Source: an uncultured Gammaproteobacteria bacterium
GTDB lineage: Bacteria; Pseudomonadota; Gammaproteobacteria; Eutrophobiales; Eutrophobiaceae
Length of the DNA stretch: 64,000 bases
Direction of reading: 5' to 3'
Assembly: GCA_963976795.1 (NCBI GenBank)
Contig: CAXBLT010000014.1
Span: 2,314-66,313, forward strand
Translations under genes and position numbers: made by a program
The notes under the pieces: generated by a model
Databases searched by the model: none
Seen by the model: only the letters and a program-made list of their open reading frames with translations
Told to the model about the DNA's origin: nothing
Shown: in pieces, positions 2,909-12,909 of the stretch
Layout: each line of letters begins with the position of its first letter
Numbering within the stretch: position 1 is the first letter of the stretch

Positions 2909-3775
2909 ATGAACGCAGTGTTATGGATGATAGGAGGCTTAGTCTCATTAAGCTTGATGGCAATCGGAGCGCGAGAACTTGCCGGGCAAATCACGACCTT
3001 CCAAATTCTTTTTTTTCGTAGTGTAGTCGGTTTGTTCATCATTACTGTAATAATTTATAAATCGAAAAAATCCAGACTATTTTCAAGTAAACGTATAAAG
3101 CTGCATATTGTACGTAATGTTTTTCATTTTATCGGGCAGTATGGCTGGTTCCTTGGGATCGGGTTATTACCCTTGGCGCATGTCTTTGCGCTGGAATTCA
3201 CCGTGCCTATGTGGACATTGGTAATAGCGTCGCTGTTCTTGAAGGAAGGCATAACTCCCCGGAAAATAATAGCTGTTTTATTTGGAGTCTTGGGCGTTTA
3301 TGTCATTTTAAACCCGGGCATAGAGATTGTAGATTCGGCATCAATTATTGTTTTGGTTGCGGCTATTGGGTATTCGGCCTCACATGTCGCAACCAAGGCG
3401 TTATCAAACACGGAGGACTCATTAACTGTCTTGTTTTATATGTGCCTCATACAACTTCCCATTGGTTTTCTATTTACCATGAATGATTGGGTATTGCCCG
3501 ATTTACGCCAGTGCTTTTGGTTAAGTGTTATTGGTATAACTGCGTTAACCGGACATTATTGTATTACCAATGCAATGAAATTAGCGGAAGCAGGTATCGT
3601 CGTTACTTTGGATTTTTTTCGATTGCCGTTGATTGCCGTTGTTGGAACGATCTTATACAACGAAGCGTTTGAAGTTGCGGTTATCCTGGGCGCTGGTTTA
3701 ATGCTATTTGGTAACCTGATAAATTTAAGCCCATCAAAAACGAAGCGTCTCCCTACAGCAACACATGAAGATTAA
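2909..3775 (+). CDS. EamA/DMT family transporter
   Basis: 288 aa, ~10 TM helices, duplicated EamA-like halves. Confidence 0.7.
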   Translation: MNAVLWMIGGLVSLSLMAIGARELAGQITTFQILFFRSVVGLFIITVIIYKSKKSRLFSSKRIKLHIVRNVFHFIGQYGWFLGIGLLPLAHVFALEFTVPMWTLVIASLFLKEGITPRKIIAVLFGVLGVYVILNPGIEIVDSASIIVLVAAIGYSASHVATKALSNTEDSLTVLFYMCLIQLPIGFLFTMNDWVLPDLRQCFWLSVIGITALTGHYCITNAMKLAEAGIVVTLDFFRLPLIAVVGTILYNEAFEVAVILGAGLMLFGNLINLSPSKTKRLPTATHED

Positions 3776-3924: not shown

Positions 3925-4377
3925 TTGAGAAACAGAGAGGTCTTAAAAATGAAGGCTAAACATGGCAAACAGCCGTACGACTATTATGAAGAAACGAGGA
4001 CGTATCCCCGTGTACATATCAACCTGCCAATTACGATATACCTTGATAACAAACGATTTATCACAGCAAGTATTTATGATATCTCGCCGGATGGGTTGCA
4101 GGTTCGTTGCACAAGGGCTATTGCGAAGGCATTAAACCCACGAGGCCAACGAATAAAGTATGAAGACAAATTTACTGTTAATACGAAATTTACTGTGTCT
4201 ATTGATGACGAGCAACATGTGGTGGCGGTCTCTTGTCAAATTTACTATTTTGTTTTGCTTCCTGACGTCGAAGGAGAAGATGTCGCTTTTGGTTTGAAGT
4301 TTAAAAAATTCGAAGGGGAATCAATCAGGCACATAGGAGATCTTATTGAAAACGAATTAGAGCCAACAGTTGTATAA
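3925..4377 (+). CDS. PilZ domain protein (c-di-GMP binding)
   Basis: RxxxR (RTYPR) and DxSxxG (DISPDG) PilZ motifs. Confidence 0.65.
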   Translation: MRNREVLKMKAKHGKQPYDYYEETRTYPRVHINLPITIYLDNKRFITASIYDISPDGLQVRCTRAIAKALNPRGQRIKYEDKFTVNTKFTVSIDDEQHVVAVSCQIYYFVLLPDVEGEDVAFGLKFKKFEGESIRHIGDLIENELEPTVV

Positions 4378-8148: not shown

Positions 8149-8603
8149 TGTTGTTCGCGCTTCAGGATGAGTCCGAGACAATCGCATTGGGCGCTAAAAT
8201 GGCTAGCGCACTGATTGGTGGTGAGATCATTTTTTTACAGGGTGAACTTGGTGCAGGTAAAACTACTTTTGTACGTGGCTTGTTAAATGCGTTAGGTCAT
8301 TCTGGTAATGTGAAAAGTCCGACCTATACCTTAGTTGAGCCCTATTCGATTACTGGTATTGATATATATCACTTTGATTTATATCGTATTAATGACCCAG
8401 AAGAACTTGAGGCAATGGGAATACGTGATTATTGTGATGGTAACGCAATCTGCTTGTTTGAATGGCCTGAGCAGGGGGCAGATGTCCTGCCCGAGGCTGA
8501 TATTACCCTGTCTCTTACTCATCTTTCCTCTGGTAGAGAGCTTGACATAAAAACGCATTCAGTCGCCGGCGAGAATATTCTGCACCGCATCAAATCAGCT
8601 TAA
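8148..8603 (+). CDS. tsaE: tRNA t6A biosynthesis ATPase TsaE
   Basis: 151 aa, P-loop GELGAGKTT, conserved yjeF-yjeE-amiB order. Confidence 0.9.
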   Translation: MLFALQDESETIALGAKMASALIGGEIIFLQGELGAGKTTFVRGLLNALGHSGNVKSPTYTLVEPYSITGIDIYHFDLYRINDPEELEAMGIRDYCDGNAICLFEWPEQGADVLPEADITLSLTHLSSGRELDIKTHSVAGENILHRIKSA

Positions 8604-8756: not shown

Positions 8757-10058
8757 ATGCGTTTGGTTTTATTTAATATTTTCGTCTTTCTATCATCATC
8801 AATTTTCGCTGAGACAGTGACGATTGATAATGTGCGAGTTTGGGCCGCACCTGATAGTACTCGTGTCGTGTTTGATGTCAGTGGTCCTGTGGAACATGAA
8901 TTGTCTTTGTTGACAGCGCCCTATCGAACGGTTATCGATCTTAAGCAAGCGTCAATGAGCAAAAAGGCGATTCAACCTGGTTCTGAAGATAAGTATCTAC
9001 AAGCCATTCGTTCAGCTGTTCGTAACCAGAATGATCTACGGATAGTGCTGGATCTGAAAAAATTCGTTAAATATAAAACATTCCAGCTAAAACCCAATAA
9101 ACAATATGGACATCGACTGGTCGTCGACCTATATGGCGCTGATTCTGACGAGTTAAAAACAAATAGTGTTAAAGAAGAAGTTACCGCTGCGAACCGACCG
9201 CGAGATGTAATCATTGCTATTGATGCAGGGCATGGTGGTGAAGATCCAGGTGCCAAGGGACCAAGCGGCGTTTATGAAAAAAATGTTGTATTGAAGATTT
9301 CCCAACAACTCGTAGATGTGATTAATAAAGAACACGGTATGCGCGCAGTGATGATCCGTAAGGGCGATTATTATATGTCTCTGCGAAAGCGTATAAACAA
9401 AGCAAGAGAATACAAGGCTGATCTGTTTATGTCTGTCCATGCCGATGCATTTCGTGACCCGAAGGTGCATGGTTCCTCGGTATATGTGCTATCTAAACGC
9501 GGCGCGAGTAGTGAAGCAGCTAAATGGTTAGCCGAGTCTGAAAATGCTTCCGATTTGATAGGTGGTGTCAGTTTAGATAACAAAGATGATGTGCTTGCTT
9601 CTGTGCTGCTAGATCTGTCTCAAACAGCTAGCCTTGAAGCTAGTATCGATATTGCTGATCGTGTTTTAAAGGGCCTGAAAAGTGTTGGTAAGGTACACAA
9701 GCGTACGGTGCAATCGGCTGGTTTTGCAGTATTAAAATCCCCTGACATCCCTTCAATACTAATCGAGACAGCGTTTATTTCGAATCCACAGGAAGAACGA
9801 AAATTATTAAGTGAAAGTCACCGTACCAATATGGCAAATGCCATCATGGTTGGCTTGCGTGGCTATTTTCGAGACTTTGCTCCAGAAGGAACCCTGCTGG
9901 CGTCAAGAAAACATATTATAGGACGCGGTGAAACGCTTTCGACTATTGCACAACACTATCAGGTGAGTACCGATACCTTGCGACGCTACAATGATCTGAA
10001 AGGTGATTTGGTTCGTGTGGGGCAAACTATAAGTATCCCAAGAAGTAGCGGTACATAA
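8757..10058 (+). CDS. amiB: N-acetylmuramoyl-L-alanine amidase (AMIN + Amidase_3 + LysM)
   Basis: 433 aa, signal peptide, amidase_3 core, C-terminal LysM; position upstream of mutL as in E. coli. Confidence 0.85.
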   Translation: MRLVLFNIFVFLSSSIFAETVTIDNVRVWAAPDSTRVVFDVSGPVEHELSLLTAPYRTVIDLKQASMSKKAIQPGSEDKYLQAIRSAVRNQNDLRIVLDLKKFVKYKTFQLKPNKQYGHRLVVDLYGADSDELKTNSVKEEVTAANRPRDVIIAIDAGHGGEDPGAKGPSGVYEKNVVLKISQQLVDVINKEHGMRAVMIRKGDYYMSLRKRINKAREYKADLFMSVHADAFRDPKVHGSSVYVLSKRGASSEAAKWLAESENASDLIGGVSLDNKDDVLASVLLDLSQTASLEASIDIADRVLKGLKSVGKVHKRTVQSAGFAVLKSPDIPSILIETAFISNPQEERKLLSESHRTNMANAIMVGLRGYFRDFAPEGTLLASRKHIIGRGETLSTIAQHYQVSTDTLRRYNDLKGDLVRVGQTISIPRSSGT

Positions 10059-10300
10059 AAAGGCACTTTAGAAAAGCCCTTTGAAATAATGGTGTTGCCA
10101 TTGGACTTAGAGATGATGGCATTTATATCAAATGGTGAAATGCCATCAAGCTATCTCCTGCAAATGGCATTAAGACTAGATGTTTTTATTATTACTTAAG
10201 ATATTTATCTTGAGGCTCGTGTATCCGGTAATTTATCCCGGTGTTACTTACTTCAGTCGATCATGAAGTCGAGAATTTTGAATTTATTCATAATTATTCC

Positions 10301-10400
10301 TTTCAATAATTCGACTACCTAGTCAGTAATACCTGCCGTGTCATACGACTCATGTCAGGTAGTAGAAATTTTCCTCACATCCATAAACTCCGTGTCTCAG
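10301..10400. repeat. copy 1 of ~100-bp imperfect direct repeat (degenerate duplicate of mutL 5' UTR and first ~18 codons)
   Basis: about 88% identical to 11182-11283; contains inverted-repeat arms gactacct/aggtagtag; the ATG-led frame decays to a stop after 34 codons. Confidence 0.8.
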
Positions 10401-10495
10401 TTTCCGTTCACAGGGCCGGGTCTTGCCTATTGCTATTATCCTGCTGTAATCATTAGCATTGCATTTTGTAATCGTGTTGATTACGCTTACATAAT

Positions 10496-10783
10496 ATGAT
10501 TAAAAAATTCCGCCACAAGGGACTGAAGCGCTTTTTTAATGATCCACGTTACACAGATAAACATGGGATTAATGCAGAAATTGCTGAACGTTTGATCGTG
10601 ATTCTTGATGCGTTAGATACGATTGAAATTGCAGAAGAAATGGATATTGCTGGTCTATATTTTCGTGGGCTAAAAGGACAACGCAAAGGTGAGTACAGTA
10701 TTCGGGTATCAGGAAATTGGCGTATTACTTGGCGTATGGATAGCAATAATGTAATTGATTTGAATTTAGAGGATTACCATTAA
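10496..10783 (+). CDS. higB: HigB-family toxin (RelE/ParE superfamily mRNA interferase)
   Basis: 95 aa, MIKKFRHKGLKRFF N-terminus and C-terminal EDYH typical of HigB; 1-nt overlap with downstream HTH antitoxin. Confidence 0.85.
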   Translation: MIKKFRHKGLKRFFNDPRYTDKHGINAEIAERLIVILDALDTIEIAEEMDIAGLYFRGLKGQRKGEYSIRVSGNWRITWRMDSNNVIDLNLEDYH

Positions 10784-11076
10784 TGGCAAGGCAACCTTCT
10801 CATCCCGGGGCGTTAATTCGTAACGTAATTTTACCTGAAACCAGACTCACGGTTAGCGATCTGGCTAAACGTTGTGGGCTTGCTCGAAATACCATGTCTA
10901 AAGTTATTAATGAACGTGGTGATATTACAGAAGATATTGCAATTAGATTAAGTCGAGTTTTAGGTAGTACGCCTCGGTTTTGGATAGGTATGCAAACAAA
11001 TCTGAATCTTTGGAAATTAGAACAAGAGAATAAACGTGTTTATCAAAAGATGGAGCGTGTTCCAACACATCATTAG
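10783..11076 (+). CDS. higA: HigA-family antitoxin (XRE-type HTH)
   Basis: 97 aa, HTH motif LAKRCGLARNTMSKVINERGDITEDIAIRLS, coupled to higB. Confidence 0.85.
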   Translation: MARQPSHPGALIRNVILPETRLTVSDLAKRCGLARNTMSKVINERGDITEDIAIRLSRVLGSTPRFWIGMQTNLNLWKLEQENKRVYQKMERVPTHH

Positions 11077-11181
11077 GTTAGAATGTAGCGGTTATAGTTT
11101 ATATAGATGGGGCATACCTTTTGCCATACTAAAACAATGGACTTTCCAAAGTACTGTGTGAAAAAGCCACATCATTTCTTT

Positions 11182-11283
11182 TTTCAATAATTCGACTACC
11201 TAGTCGGTAATACCTGCCGTATCATACGGCACATGTCAGATAGTAGAAGTTTACCTCGTATCCATAAACTCCCTGTTTCAGTC
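11182..11283. repeat. copy 2 of ~100-bp direct repeat (authentic mutL 5' region)
   Basis: aligns with 10301-10400; overlaps mutL start codon at 11233. Confidence 0.8.
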
Positions 11284-12909
11284 GCAAACCAGATTGCTGC
11301 TGGTGAAGTGATTGAACGCCCAGCTTCTGTAGTAAAGGAATTGATTGAGAATAGTATTGATGCAGCAGCGACAAAAATTGAAATTGATATTGAAGAAGCG
11401 GGTATAAGTTTGATACGTGTGCGTGATAATGGACAAGGGATACATAAAGACGATCTAGAGTTAGCGTTACAAGCACATGCCACCAGCAAATTGTCGGCAT
11501 TTTCTGATCTGTCGCAGATAGTCAGTATGGGTTTTAGAGGGGAGGCTATCCCGAGTATTGCTTCGGTTTCACGATTTAAAATGACATCACGTCTGAACGG
11601 TACCGAACACGCCTGGAGCATCGATAACCAATCACAAATAAAACCGGCATCTCATGAGACAGGAACAACCGTTGAAGTTAATGATTTGTTCTTTTCTACG
11701 CCAGGGCGTCGCAAATTTTTAAAATCAGAAAAAACGGAATATCTACATATTCAATCGTTGATCAGAGCACTTGCTTTGAGTCACTTTGCAACCGGGATAT
11801 TTGTTAAACATAATGAACATCCTTTGTTTAGTTTACCTGCATGTAAGGACGCTATTGAAAAACGTATCATTAGTGTTTGTGGACGGTCATTTACTAATAA
11901 AAGTGTACAGGTTGATTCTGCAAAAGAGGGCATGCATTTATGGGGGTGGCTGGGATTAAATGATGTGGCCCGTAGTCAATCTGATCGACAGTATTTCTAT
12001 GTCAATGGACGGGTTGTTCGAGATAAGCATGTCAACCACGCTATACGTCTAGCTTATGATGATCGCATTGCTCCCGGACGTTATCCAAGTTACGTGCTGC
12101 ACTTTGAAATTGACCCTTCATTGGTTGATGTGAATGTCCATCCTGCAAAATCTGAAGTTCGATTTTCAGAAACAAGAAATGTACATGACTTTATTTATAG
12201 CAGCCTTTTGGAATGTTTAAGAAAACCAATCGTTGTTATAGACAATAATGTTAACTATGAAGCGAATGGATTAAATGCACAGAAAAACATTAATGAAGAA
12301 ACTAATATTTATAACACGACTAACTCTAAACAAACTAACATTTTTGAGAGCAGGGTAGCGGCATCAAAATACTTATCATTGTTAGCAAATCAATTTCTAA
12401 TTGCTACGATTAATCATGAGCAATACTTAATTGATATTGCTAAATCGAGGGCGTTAATAACGGCGCAACATTTACATAATGACTTCCTGTCAGAGTCGAT
12501 GACAATGAGGCCAATTCTTGTGCCGGTGGGTTGTGAGTTGAGTTCAAACTTACTGGAATTTGTTAATAAAAATGACATGCTCATTGAACAATGGGGTTTT
12601 AAATTAGAACAAATAGCGCCAACTCAAATATTAATTCGTTCGATACCTGCAACATTAATCAGTTCCGAGATAATCCCTTTAGTAAACGATCTAATTGATG
12701 CTTTATATGAAGATGAATCGAGTAAAGCTATCTCTAATATAATTGCACAACACGTTAACGATTCTGGTACAGCGTTGGATGAAAGCAATACGACACAATT
12801 AATTAACGAGATTTCTCAGTTTGAACAAAGTTCACATGAATCCGGTTCACTACCATGGCGAAAATTTGATTCTGAAACCTTATCGGCATGGTTGAACGCA
12901 CAAACATGA
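11233..12909 (+). CDS. mutL: DNA mismatch repair endonuclease MutL
   Basis: 558 aa, GHKL ATPase N-terminus (ANQIAAGEVIERPASVVKELIENSIDA), conserved amiB-mutL-miaA-hfq order. Confidence 0.95.
   Translation: MSDSRSLPRIHKLPVSVANQIAAGEVIERPASVVKELIENSIDAAATKIEIDIEEAGISLIRVRDNGQGIHKDDLELALQAHATSKLSAFSDLSQIVSMGFRGEAIPSIASVSRFKMTSRLNGTEHAWSIDNQSQIKPASHETGTTVEVNDLFFSTPGRRKFLKSEKTEYLHIQSLIRALALSHFATGIFVKHNEHPLFSLPACKDAIEKRIISVCGRSFTNKSVQVDSAKEGMHLWGWLGLNDVARSQSDRQYFYVNGRVVRDKHVNHAIRLAYDDRIAPGRYPSYVLHFEIDPSLVDVNVHPAKSEVRFSETRNVHDFIYSSLLECLRKPIVVIDNNVNYEANGLNAQKNINEETNIYNTTNSKQTNIFESRVAASKYLSLLANQFLIATINHEQYLIDIAKSRALITAQHLHNDFLSESMTMRPILVPVGCELSSNLLEFVNKNDMLIEQWGFKLEQIAPTQILIRSIPATLISSEIIPLVNDLIDALYEDESSKAISNIIAQHVNDSGTALDESNTTQLINEISQFEQSSHESGSLPWRKFDSETLSAWLNAQT

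Follow-up and report, generated by a model that had tools for sequence, protein, structure and literature searches.

The window analysed here is a 64,000-nt stretch of DNA from an uncultured gammaproteobacterium (contig CAXBLT010000014.1), and all coordinates are window positions unless a locus identifier (L0xx) is given. In this window, the toxin–antitoxin gene pair higB–higA (higBA) lies between the core genes amiB and mutL and is bracketed by imperfect direct repeats of approximately 100 bp that contain the 5′ end of mutL. This arrangement had been noted in a preliminary description and was borne out here, as were its calls of amiB, higB, higA, and mutL, all of which are supported by Pfam matches. 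The features of the locus are listed below; an empty site is an amiB–mutL junction that carries no higBA.

8757–10058, + strand: amiB, N-acetylmuramoyl-L-alanine amidase, the left flanking core gene (Pfam Amidase_3, AMIN, and LysM)
10059–10300, no strand: segment X, 242 nt of non-coding filler (from alignments to L001, L002, L038, and L041)
10301–10401, + strand: upstream repeat copy, an orphan stub with the mutL leader, an ATG (10352), and 17 codons
10402–10443, no strand: 42-nt spacer separating the stub from the cassette, 52% GC and without homology elsewhere
10444–10495, + strand: predicted higBA promoter/operator region, part of the portable unit and conserved across six aligned cassette contexts
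10496–10783, + strand: higB, toxin of 95 aa (PF05015, 5.2e-17)
10783–11076, + strand: higA, antitoxin of 97 aa with an Xre-type helix-turn-helix (HTH_3, 1.8e-6)
11084–11181, no strand: spacer 3′ of the cassette, found neither in the empty sites nor at the other cassette loci
11182–11282, + strand: downstream repeat copy, of which 11182–11193 (TTTCAATAATTC) is non-native and 11194–11282 is the native mutL leader with codons 1–17
11233–12909, + strand: mutL, intact, 558 aa (Pfam MutL domains)

The repeat search recovered a long direct repeat of 113 nt (10289–10401 and 11170–11282; 86% identity, spacing 881). Its well-matched core of 101 nt (10301–10401 and 11182–11282) showed 89.1% identity in a BLAST comparison within the window (E = 4e-31). 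The 11 mismatches in the core comprise eight transitions and three transversions. The copies agree without interruption over at most 24 nt, and this shared 24-mer occurs at these two sites alone in the 64 kb, where shuffled sequences gave an expectation of 0.00. Each copy consists of a leader of ~51 nt, the ATG, and 17 mutL codons. As had been proposed, the downstream copy is the real start of mutL, and the upstream copy opens an open reading frame (ORF) of 34 codons that is closed by a stop (10352–10456). The spacer 3′ of the cassette falls into 86 nt (11084–11169) and a final ~12 nt (11170–11181), the latter being the weakly similar left extension of the repeat.

Independent ENA, Tara, and Logan assemblies contained an identical HigB sequence on 22 contigs in total. 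All 10 of the places shown for these contigs were the amiB–mutL locus, and all eight that were long enough for both repeat copies carried both. Because the structure recurs in many independent assemblies, it is not an assembly artefact.

Six empty-site sequences were compared with the window, three from the same species (L041, L038, and L039) and three from sister lineages with ~86% nucleotide identity (L001, L002, and L040). In all six, amiB is followed by ~56–58 nt and then mutL, with no higBA and with a single copy of the repeat sequence. These sequences bear out the earlier proposal that higBA is an insertion into an otherwise tight amiB–mutL junction. L001 (Thiotrichaceae bacterium UBA973) and L002 (Gammaproteobacteria OFTM147) were located by a MutL-based scan with one genome per species; their MutL proteins are 84% identical to that of the window, and amiB ends 56 nt before the mutL ATG. 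The same arrangement was seen in L040, a JGI metagenome contig. The same-species empty alleles were located through exact-protein look-ups. L041 comes from a 198-kb Tara scaffold, and its MutL protein is present on 11 contigs; L041 has 58 nt between amiB and mutL, and its identity with the window is 99.2% in the amiB flank and 98.8% in the mutL flank. The MutL proteins of L038 and L039 do not differ from that of the window; at the nucleotide level, both contigs are 99.87–99.96% identical to the window from position 11194 onward, and upstream of this position they carry the empty-site spacer. Both alleles were present in one sample, ERZ2783029 (L018 with the insertion and L039 empty). Since empty alleles exist within the species and L018 and L039 share a sample, the higBA insertion is a presence/absence polymorphism segregating in the population of an uncultured marine gammaproteobacterium.

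The extent of the insertion was determined by alignment to the empty sites. On the left side, homology ends at the amiB stop codon, and the insertion allele carries ~1,135 nt (~10059–11193) in place of the native 19–22-nt spacer. It had been described as an ~880-bp insertion carrying only higB and higA, a figure that needs correction, for the difference also includes the 242 nt of segment X and spacers of 42 and 86 nt. From left to right, it consists of segment X (10059–10300), the stub (10301–10401), a spacer (10402–10443), the higBA unit (10444–11083), a second spacer (11084–11169), and a non-native repeat extension of 24 nt (11170–11193). The only ORFs in the insertion with family matches are higB and higA. 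Homology of the empty sites with both window copies starts at GACTACCTAGTC (10313 and 11194). Two stretches, the 12 nt TTTCAATAATTC and about 12 more nt of weak similarity, are common to both window copies and occur in no empty site; half of the longest exact run of 24 nt is made of such non-native sequence.

Segment X was found in none of the empty sites and had no other match in the window and no match in Rfam. It is indel-polymorphic among the insertion-bearing contigs: L016 lacks 10166–10251 (86 nt), and a 48-nt deletion between two ATGGCATT repeats (window 10115–10162) is seen in L021. Segment X appears to be filler that is eroding through deletions. A rearranged version of it was observed in L019, and it holds a 10-bp hairpin, GATGGCATTT...AAATGCCATC. 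The possibility that the empty alleles arose by excision through the repeat was also considered and rejected, because excision would leave X and one repeat copy; the empty alleles have neither X nor TTTCAATAATTC.

Judged by their sequences, higB and higA are ordinary members of the HigBA family. HigB matched PF05015 over its full length with 62.5 bits (cut-off, 27) and had 1847 homologues. Its best solved relative was Proteus vulgaris HigB (4MCT_B; 7.6e-13), and the solved relatives of HigA were 3CEC, 6F8S, and the HigA of 4MCX. The toxin gene precedes the antitoxin gene in one operon, which is the reversed order, and the higA start overlaps the higB stop by 1 nt. The promoter region, in which the promoter scan placed a promoter-like site at 10466–10495, contains the palindrome TGTAATC-N5-GATTAC (10467–10484) and TTGCAT; these are conserved in six aligned cassette contexts, and the palindrome is a candidate operator. 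The pair resembles the characterised HigBA of P. vulgaris Rts1 (4MCT/4MCX) and GraTA of Pseudomonas putida (6F8S) in its toxin-first order, PF05015 RelE-fold toxin, Xre/HTH_3 antitoxin, stop/start overlap, and promoter palindrome. Unlike these systems, it is a chromosomal pair of an uncultured marine gammaproteobacterium, and its sequence is distant from those of characterised members (at most 47% identity to plasmid-borne homologues; PDB E ~1e-13).

The portable higBA unit measures ~640 bp, from ~10444/10459 to 11060/11083, and is common to seven other loci at 77–84% nucleotide identity. Its limits lie ~50–65 nt upstream of higB and within ~7 nt of the higA stop. The G + C content of the cassette is 37.5%, compared with 40.4% for the window, and this comparison gave no compositional sign of foreign DNA. 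IMG/VR viral contigs yielded no HigB relatives with either the single protein or a 45-sequence profile, plasmid homologues reached at most 47% identity, and there was no DNA-level match of the cassette in PLSDB. From these database searches, a phage or plasmid origin of the cassette was rejected.

The two repeat copies differ in their relation to the resident gene. Over the 89 nt shared with the empty sites, the functional copy has one mismatch (11206) to the same-species empty alleles and the stub has 10. The stub is without two species-specific bases (the A of GTTTACC and the T of CTCGTATCC) and has seven private changes; in its coding part, five differences between it and the functional copy are non-synonymous and three are synonymous, and one of them alters a residue of the conserved KLPVSV motif (P14R). 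These comparisons indicate that the stub is much older than the within-species diversity or derives from another lineage; it would not have been copied from the resident mutL start upon entry of the cassette into this genome. The earlier interpretation of the repeat as a target duplication is therefore upheld in one respect only: the repeat does duplicate the mutL 5′ end, but the 10 mismatches in 89 nt and the seven private changes argue that the upstream copy was not made from the resident start at integration.

Further differences between alleles were found inside mutL. Between the window and L041, the segment at 11405–11931 (codons ~58–233) holds 56 mismatches in 527 nt (10.6%), and L038 and L039 match the window across it. 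In the remainder of mutL and ~5 kb downstream, the window and L041 differ at nine sites. All 13 amino-acid differences between the two MutL proteins lie within residues 58–222. This pattern is a recombination mosaic inside mutL itself, and recombination around the amiB–mutL locus is frequent.

A self-comparison of the window and 21 non-redundant loci (255 kb; local direct repeats of at least 28 nt with a spacing of 200–3000 nt) yielded four local direct repeats, all of which bracket this cassette family:

Window: 101 nt, 89% identity
L044: at least 89 nt, 92% identity
L046: 34–39 nt, 90–94% identity
L043: 31 nt, 94% identity

Bracketing by local, context-specific repeats is thus also found at other higBA loci. 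The four repeats had no mutual similarity in BLAST. When a common core was sought among the repeats of different loci, only the 5-mer GTCAG recurred, which is compatible with chance by our own estimate, and the candidate was rejected.

L044 has the same architecture as the window, with a stub corresponding to codons 9–38 of a downstream exonuclease-like gene, two toxin–antitoxin pairs, and the intact gene. All seven differences between the L044 copies are synonymous, and for this reason the copies must have diverged as functional genes in separate lineages before they were juxtaposed. Such a pattern is the prediction of between-lineage recombination and not of the decay of a dead duplicate. 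At L046, the 39-nt repeats lie within ~15 nt of the conserved left edge of the cassette (~5 nt from a looser edge) and within 2 nt of the higA stop. At L043, TTAAAGGGGTCAGAGCCCTTTAA occurs twice (2948–2978 and 4323–4353) and brackets higBA together with an 87-aa ORF. A 238-nt direct repeat with 91% identity was also found in L049–L053 (333–570 and 1300–1537), where it brackets a DJ-1/PfpI gene. The left copy represents the C-terminal 75 codons of the adjoining cupin gene in the form of a decayed stub, with 13 non-synonymous and five synonymous codon differences. Such a repeat around DJ-1/PfpI cargo shows that scars of this type are not confined to toxin–antitoxin genes; the stub-repeat scar is neither universal for the cassette family nor exclusive to it.

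The insertion with its extent, the empty alleles, the divergence of the stub, and the recurrence of similar repeats elsewhere in the cassette family are direct observations, from which we infer the recombination route of the cassette, its direction, and its timing. The reading that we favour, to which we assign a probability of about 0.6, is that the repeat is the old scar of a homology-driven, integrase-free insertion, either one-ended or by single crossover, and that the allele was later spread or replaced through homologous recombination in its flanks. DNA with higBA just upstream of a mutL 5′ end would have recombined with the resident mutL, this 5′ end being the only homologous stretch. 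The opposite end could have been closed by an illegitimate join at codon 17 of linear DNA, i.e., homology-facilitated illegitimate recombination, or the incoming DNA may have been circular and entered by a Campbell-type single crossover. By either route, an intact mutL would remain downstream, and one mutL start would be left upstream as an orphan. The event would be old, the stub having drifted since. Later, the insertion allele may have spread, or the empty allele may have replaced it, by homologous recombination in the amiB and mutL flanks. The site-specific integration put forward in the preliminary description has no support: neither a recombinase nor terminal inverted repeats are present in the insertion, and the repeats at different loci have no core in common.

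Several points weigh against this homology-driven insertion. The later exchange may have gone in either direction (insertion imported, or replaced by the empty allele), and the model needs a crossover within ~12 nt of the homology edge on the mutL side. No clear microhomology was found at the stub/insert junction (~10400–10402). Exact-protein look-ups of AmiB, MutL, HigB, and cluster members gave full insertion or empty alleles only and no donor or intermediate allele, such as amiB–X–mutL without higBA or higBA upstream of mutL without the stub. The mostly non-synonymous differences of the window stub fit decay in situ equally well. Only seven cassette contexts were evaluable, four with a bracketing repeat and three in which none was found (rsgA–rnpB in L023/L028, L047, and L049–L053). 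Furthermore, the repeats of L043 and L046 are short hairpin-containing intergenic sequences and possibly have another cause. The palindromic hairpin TTAAAGGGGTCAGAGCCCTTTAA lies just 3′ of higA at both L043 and L045 (1067–1093); it could be a site resembling repetitive extragenic palindromic (REP) sequences, or a recombination site, that travels with a cassette sub-lineage.

A true long target-site duplication would involve a ~640-bp higBA unit inserted through trans-acting staggered breaks tens to ~100 nt apart, followed by fill-in and decay of the upstream copy in place. This would account for context-specific bracketing repeats at four of the seven evaluable loci, which are the sole local repeats in the self-comparison, for the L046 repeats that nearly abut the cassette edges, and for the predominance of non-synonymous changes in the window stub, which decay predicts. 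We nevertheless regard it as unlikely. Both window copies carry 12–24 nt found in no empty site, 242 nt of X and 128 nt of spacer also entered, and 10 of 89 positions distinguish the upstream copy from the resident target. The seven of seven synonymous differences at L044 would have a probability of ~1e-4 under dead-stub decay (our own estimate, with ~1/4 of random changes being synonymous). Moreover, the repeats vary from 31 to 113 nt with neither a fixed length nor a common core, the four pairs are all ~90% identical with none near 100%, and a similar repeat of 238 nt and 91% identity surrounds the unrelated DJ-1/PfpI gene of L049. No transposase gene or terminal inverted repeats were found, and neither the 1,135-nt nor the 640-nt unit has ends that pair as an inverted repeat. 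A related idea, which seems to us distinctly doubtful, is that the ~640-bp promoter-to-stop higBA unit moves by an unrecognised recombinase acting in trans, or by a repair-based mechanism, that duplicates a target of 30–110 bp; in many cases the duplicated stretch would be the 5′ end of the gene lying downstream, and the target gene would thereby survive. If true, such an unrecognised target-duplicating mechanism would be a general integrase-free insertion route for toxin–antitoxin islets.

The locus could also be the remnant of an integrase-type island at the mutL 5′ end, similar to SpyCI, that has shrunk to its addictive toxin–antitoxin pair, with the repeats as attL and attR. SpyCIM1 has been shown to integrate into this end of mutL (PMC4689407, PMC3430984), and elements that integrate into gene ends bring a substitute copy of that end, giving the layout of stub, element, and substitute start with the rest of the gene. 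Segment X, with its ongoing deletions, and the spacers could then be island debris. However, the insertion contains no integrase, excisionase, or other island gene and its neighbours are all housekeeping genes, the copies share no identical core longer than 24 nt and none with other loci, and HigB relatives were not found in IMG/VR viral contigs. Segment X lies outside the repeats, to the left of the would-be attL, yet it is missing from the empty sites. In addition, it is the orphan that is divergent and the mutL-fused copy that resembles the resident, which is the opposite of a simple att prediction, and this origin is accordingly quite improbable in our judgement. The proposal that the ~100-bp unit is a dispersed element tied to toxin–antitoxin mobility, resembling REP sequences or miniature inverted-repeat transposable elements, receives almost no credence. 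The unit does contain short hairpins, and hairpin-containing repeats flank the cassette in L043 and L046. Against this, the unit has only two copies in 64 kb, its downstream copy is orthologous to the single-copy mutL leader and N-terminal codons in six empty sites, and BLAST found nothing similar to the 101-nt unit at the other cassette loci. A 27-nt core pattern matched one contig, at this same locus, among 241 million JGI metagenome records.

Homology-driven entry of this kind has precedents in known systems. In Escherichia coli conjugation, single crossover of a circular molecule left the insert between duplications of 109–950 bp of the homologous locus; one-ended illegitimate recombination occurred less often (PMC3240628). 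The same study cites work on homology-facilitated illegitimate recombination in the transformation of Acinetobacter, Pseudomonas stutzeri, and Streptococcus pneumoniae (PMC3240628). The single-crossover products resemble the locus described here in their entry through one stretch of homology and in the duplications that flank the insert, which compare with 101 nt here and at least 89 nt in L044. They differ in that those events were laboratory events on engineered substrates, whereas ours is deduced from a natural, old, and diverged scar. The flanking repeat is most likely a natural example of this known class of recombination products and not a new type of element.

A sequential displacement model has been proposed for Vibrio cholerae type VI secretion system (T6SS) effector–immunity modules and for orphan toxin fragments of Rhs and contact-dependent inhibition (CDI) systems (PMC5361080). 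As in our case, a segment of a conserved neighbouring gene serves as the anchor, an orphan resident fragment is left, and no integrase is involved (PMC5361080). In the Vibrio modules, however, the orphan is a 3′ toxin/immunity piece and arrays build up; in the window, an unrelated housekeeping gene has its 5′ end orphaned, and a toxin–antitoxin pair forms the cargo. In Photorhabdus, a 24-bp res-like palindrome is duplicated around the ParE/RelE 26 operon and single in a close relative, and the spread of toxin–antitoxin islets by homologous recombination in flanking core genes has been proposed (Belot et al., 2026, PMC13617665). This islet is likewise a minimal toxin–antitoxin operon with its promoter and no mobility genes, bracketed by a sequence that is single in the empty relative. 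Its palindrome resembles a Tn3 res site and points to site-specific recombination, while the repeat in the window is 101 nt of imperfect, locus-specific host leader and coding sequence. The SpyCI elements of Streptococcus pyogenes share with the window a foreign element at the mutL 5′ end and a possible effect on the expression of the mismatch-repair operon. They differ in having many genes (as implied by their phage-like description), site-specific integration, dynamic excision, and a block of mutL transcription. The window insertion, by comparison, is 1.1 kb with two genes and no recombinase, leaves an intact mutL with its own leader, and its empty alleles are not excision products.

The arrival of chromosomal toxin–antitoxin pairs as isolated two-gene islets without mobility genes has been described as poorly characterised (PMC13617665). 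The present locus is a clean natural example, with coexisting insertion and empty alleles, a defined portable unit, a scar pointing to homology-driven entry, and related scars at other loci of the family. It offers a testable clue to how such islets enter chromosomes without mobility genes.

The insertion may also matter for the genes around it. The neighbours are housekeeping genes throughout (nnr/yjeF, tsaE, amiB, mutL, miaA, hfq, hflX, and hflK), with miaA, hfq, and hflX following mutL in this order. No terminator-like site was predicted between amiB and mutL in a scan of 9950–11350, and higBA, mutL, miaA, and hfq lie on one strand. Because of this co-directional order and the lack of a predicted terminator, transcription is likely to continue from amiB or the higBA promoter into mutL, and mismatch repair and Hfq expression could differ between the alleles.

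The preliminary description had also suggested the stem gactacct...aggtagtag in the repeat as a recombination site or a mutL 5′-UTR structure. This stem pairs well in the upstream copy only (z = -1.1, not significant) and is mismatched in the functional copy and the relatives. Fold z-scores of the repeat sequences ranged from -0.4 to -2.0, and no Rfam match was found in the insertion/repeat region at E ≤ 1. With weak z-scores, no Rfam match, and the long stem confined to the orphan copy, a structured RNA or recombination-site stem was dismissed. A hybrid or outward promoter at the junction of TTTCAATAATTC and GACTACC was dropped as well, as the promoter scan did not detect it. The native mutL leader forms a hairpin, GCCGUA-UCA-UACGGC (11215–11229), just 5′ of the start codon. 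It is present in the functional copy and both relatives folded (L041 and L001) and is broken in the orphan copy; it is possibly a translational element of mutL.

Regarding the wider cassette family, a related higBA was found in two other species (L023 and L028, ~3580–3720) between rsgA and the apparent start of the RNase P RNA (…GAGGAAAGTCCGGGCTCCATAGG), with no flanking repeat. The cassette tends to adjoin other toxin–antitoxin or defence genes: a second HigB/HTH pair in L044 (823–1413), a YoeB-like toxin fragment in L045 (3–269), a HicB-like gene in L047 (3701–4129), and a SMODS gene of the cyclic-oligonucleotide-based antiphage signalling system (CBASS) type in L043 (823–1752).

Minor differences between the alleles were also observed in the left flank. 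Relative to L041, with a background of ~99.8% identity, clusters of single-nucleotide polymorphisms (SNPs) lie in tsaE (8249–8339; nine in 91 nt) and in amiB (9030–9041; three in 12 nt), which suggests short imported tracts. In the mismatch map and alignment, the last ~70 nt of amiB (9986–10043) form a patch divergent from the empty allele L041, and 9986 is the first SNP that separates insertion from empty alleles. A start at window position 9931, exactly 55 nt before 9986, is common to at least three independent contigs (the L017/L037 scaffold, L020, and L022). These starts fit a k = 55 branch of the assembly graph and suggest that both alleles co-occur in those samples. The empty-allele strains (L041 3909–3920, and L038) carry a 12-nt in-frame insertion near the 3′ end of amiB, at window ~10030–10040, which gives an AmiB of 437 aa instead of 433 aa with an extra SSFP and looks like a local duplication of CCGAGNAGT.

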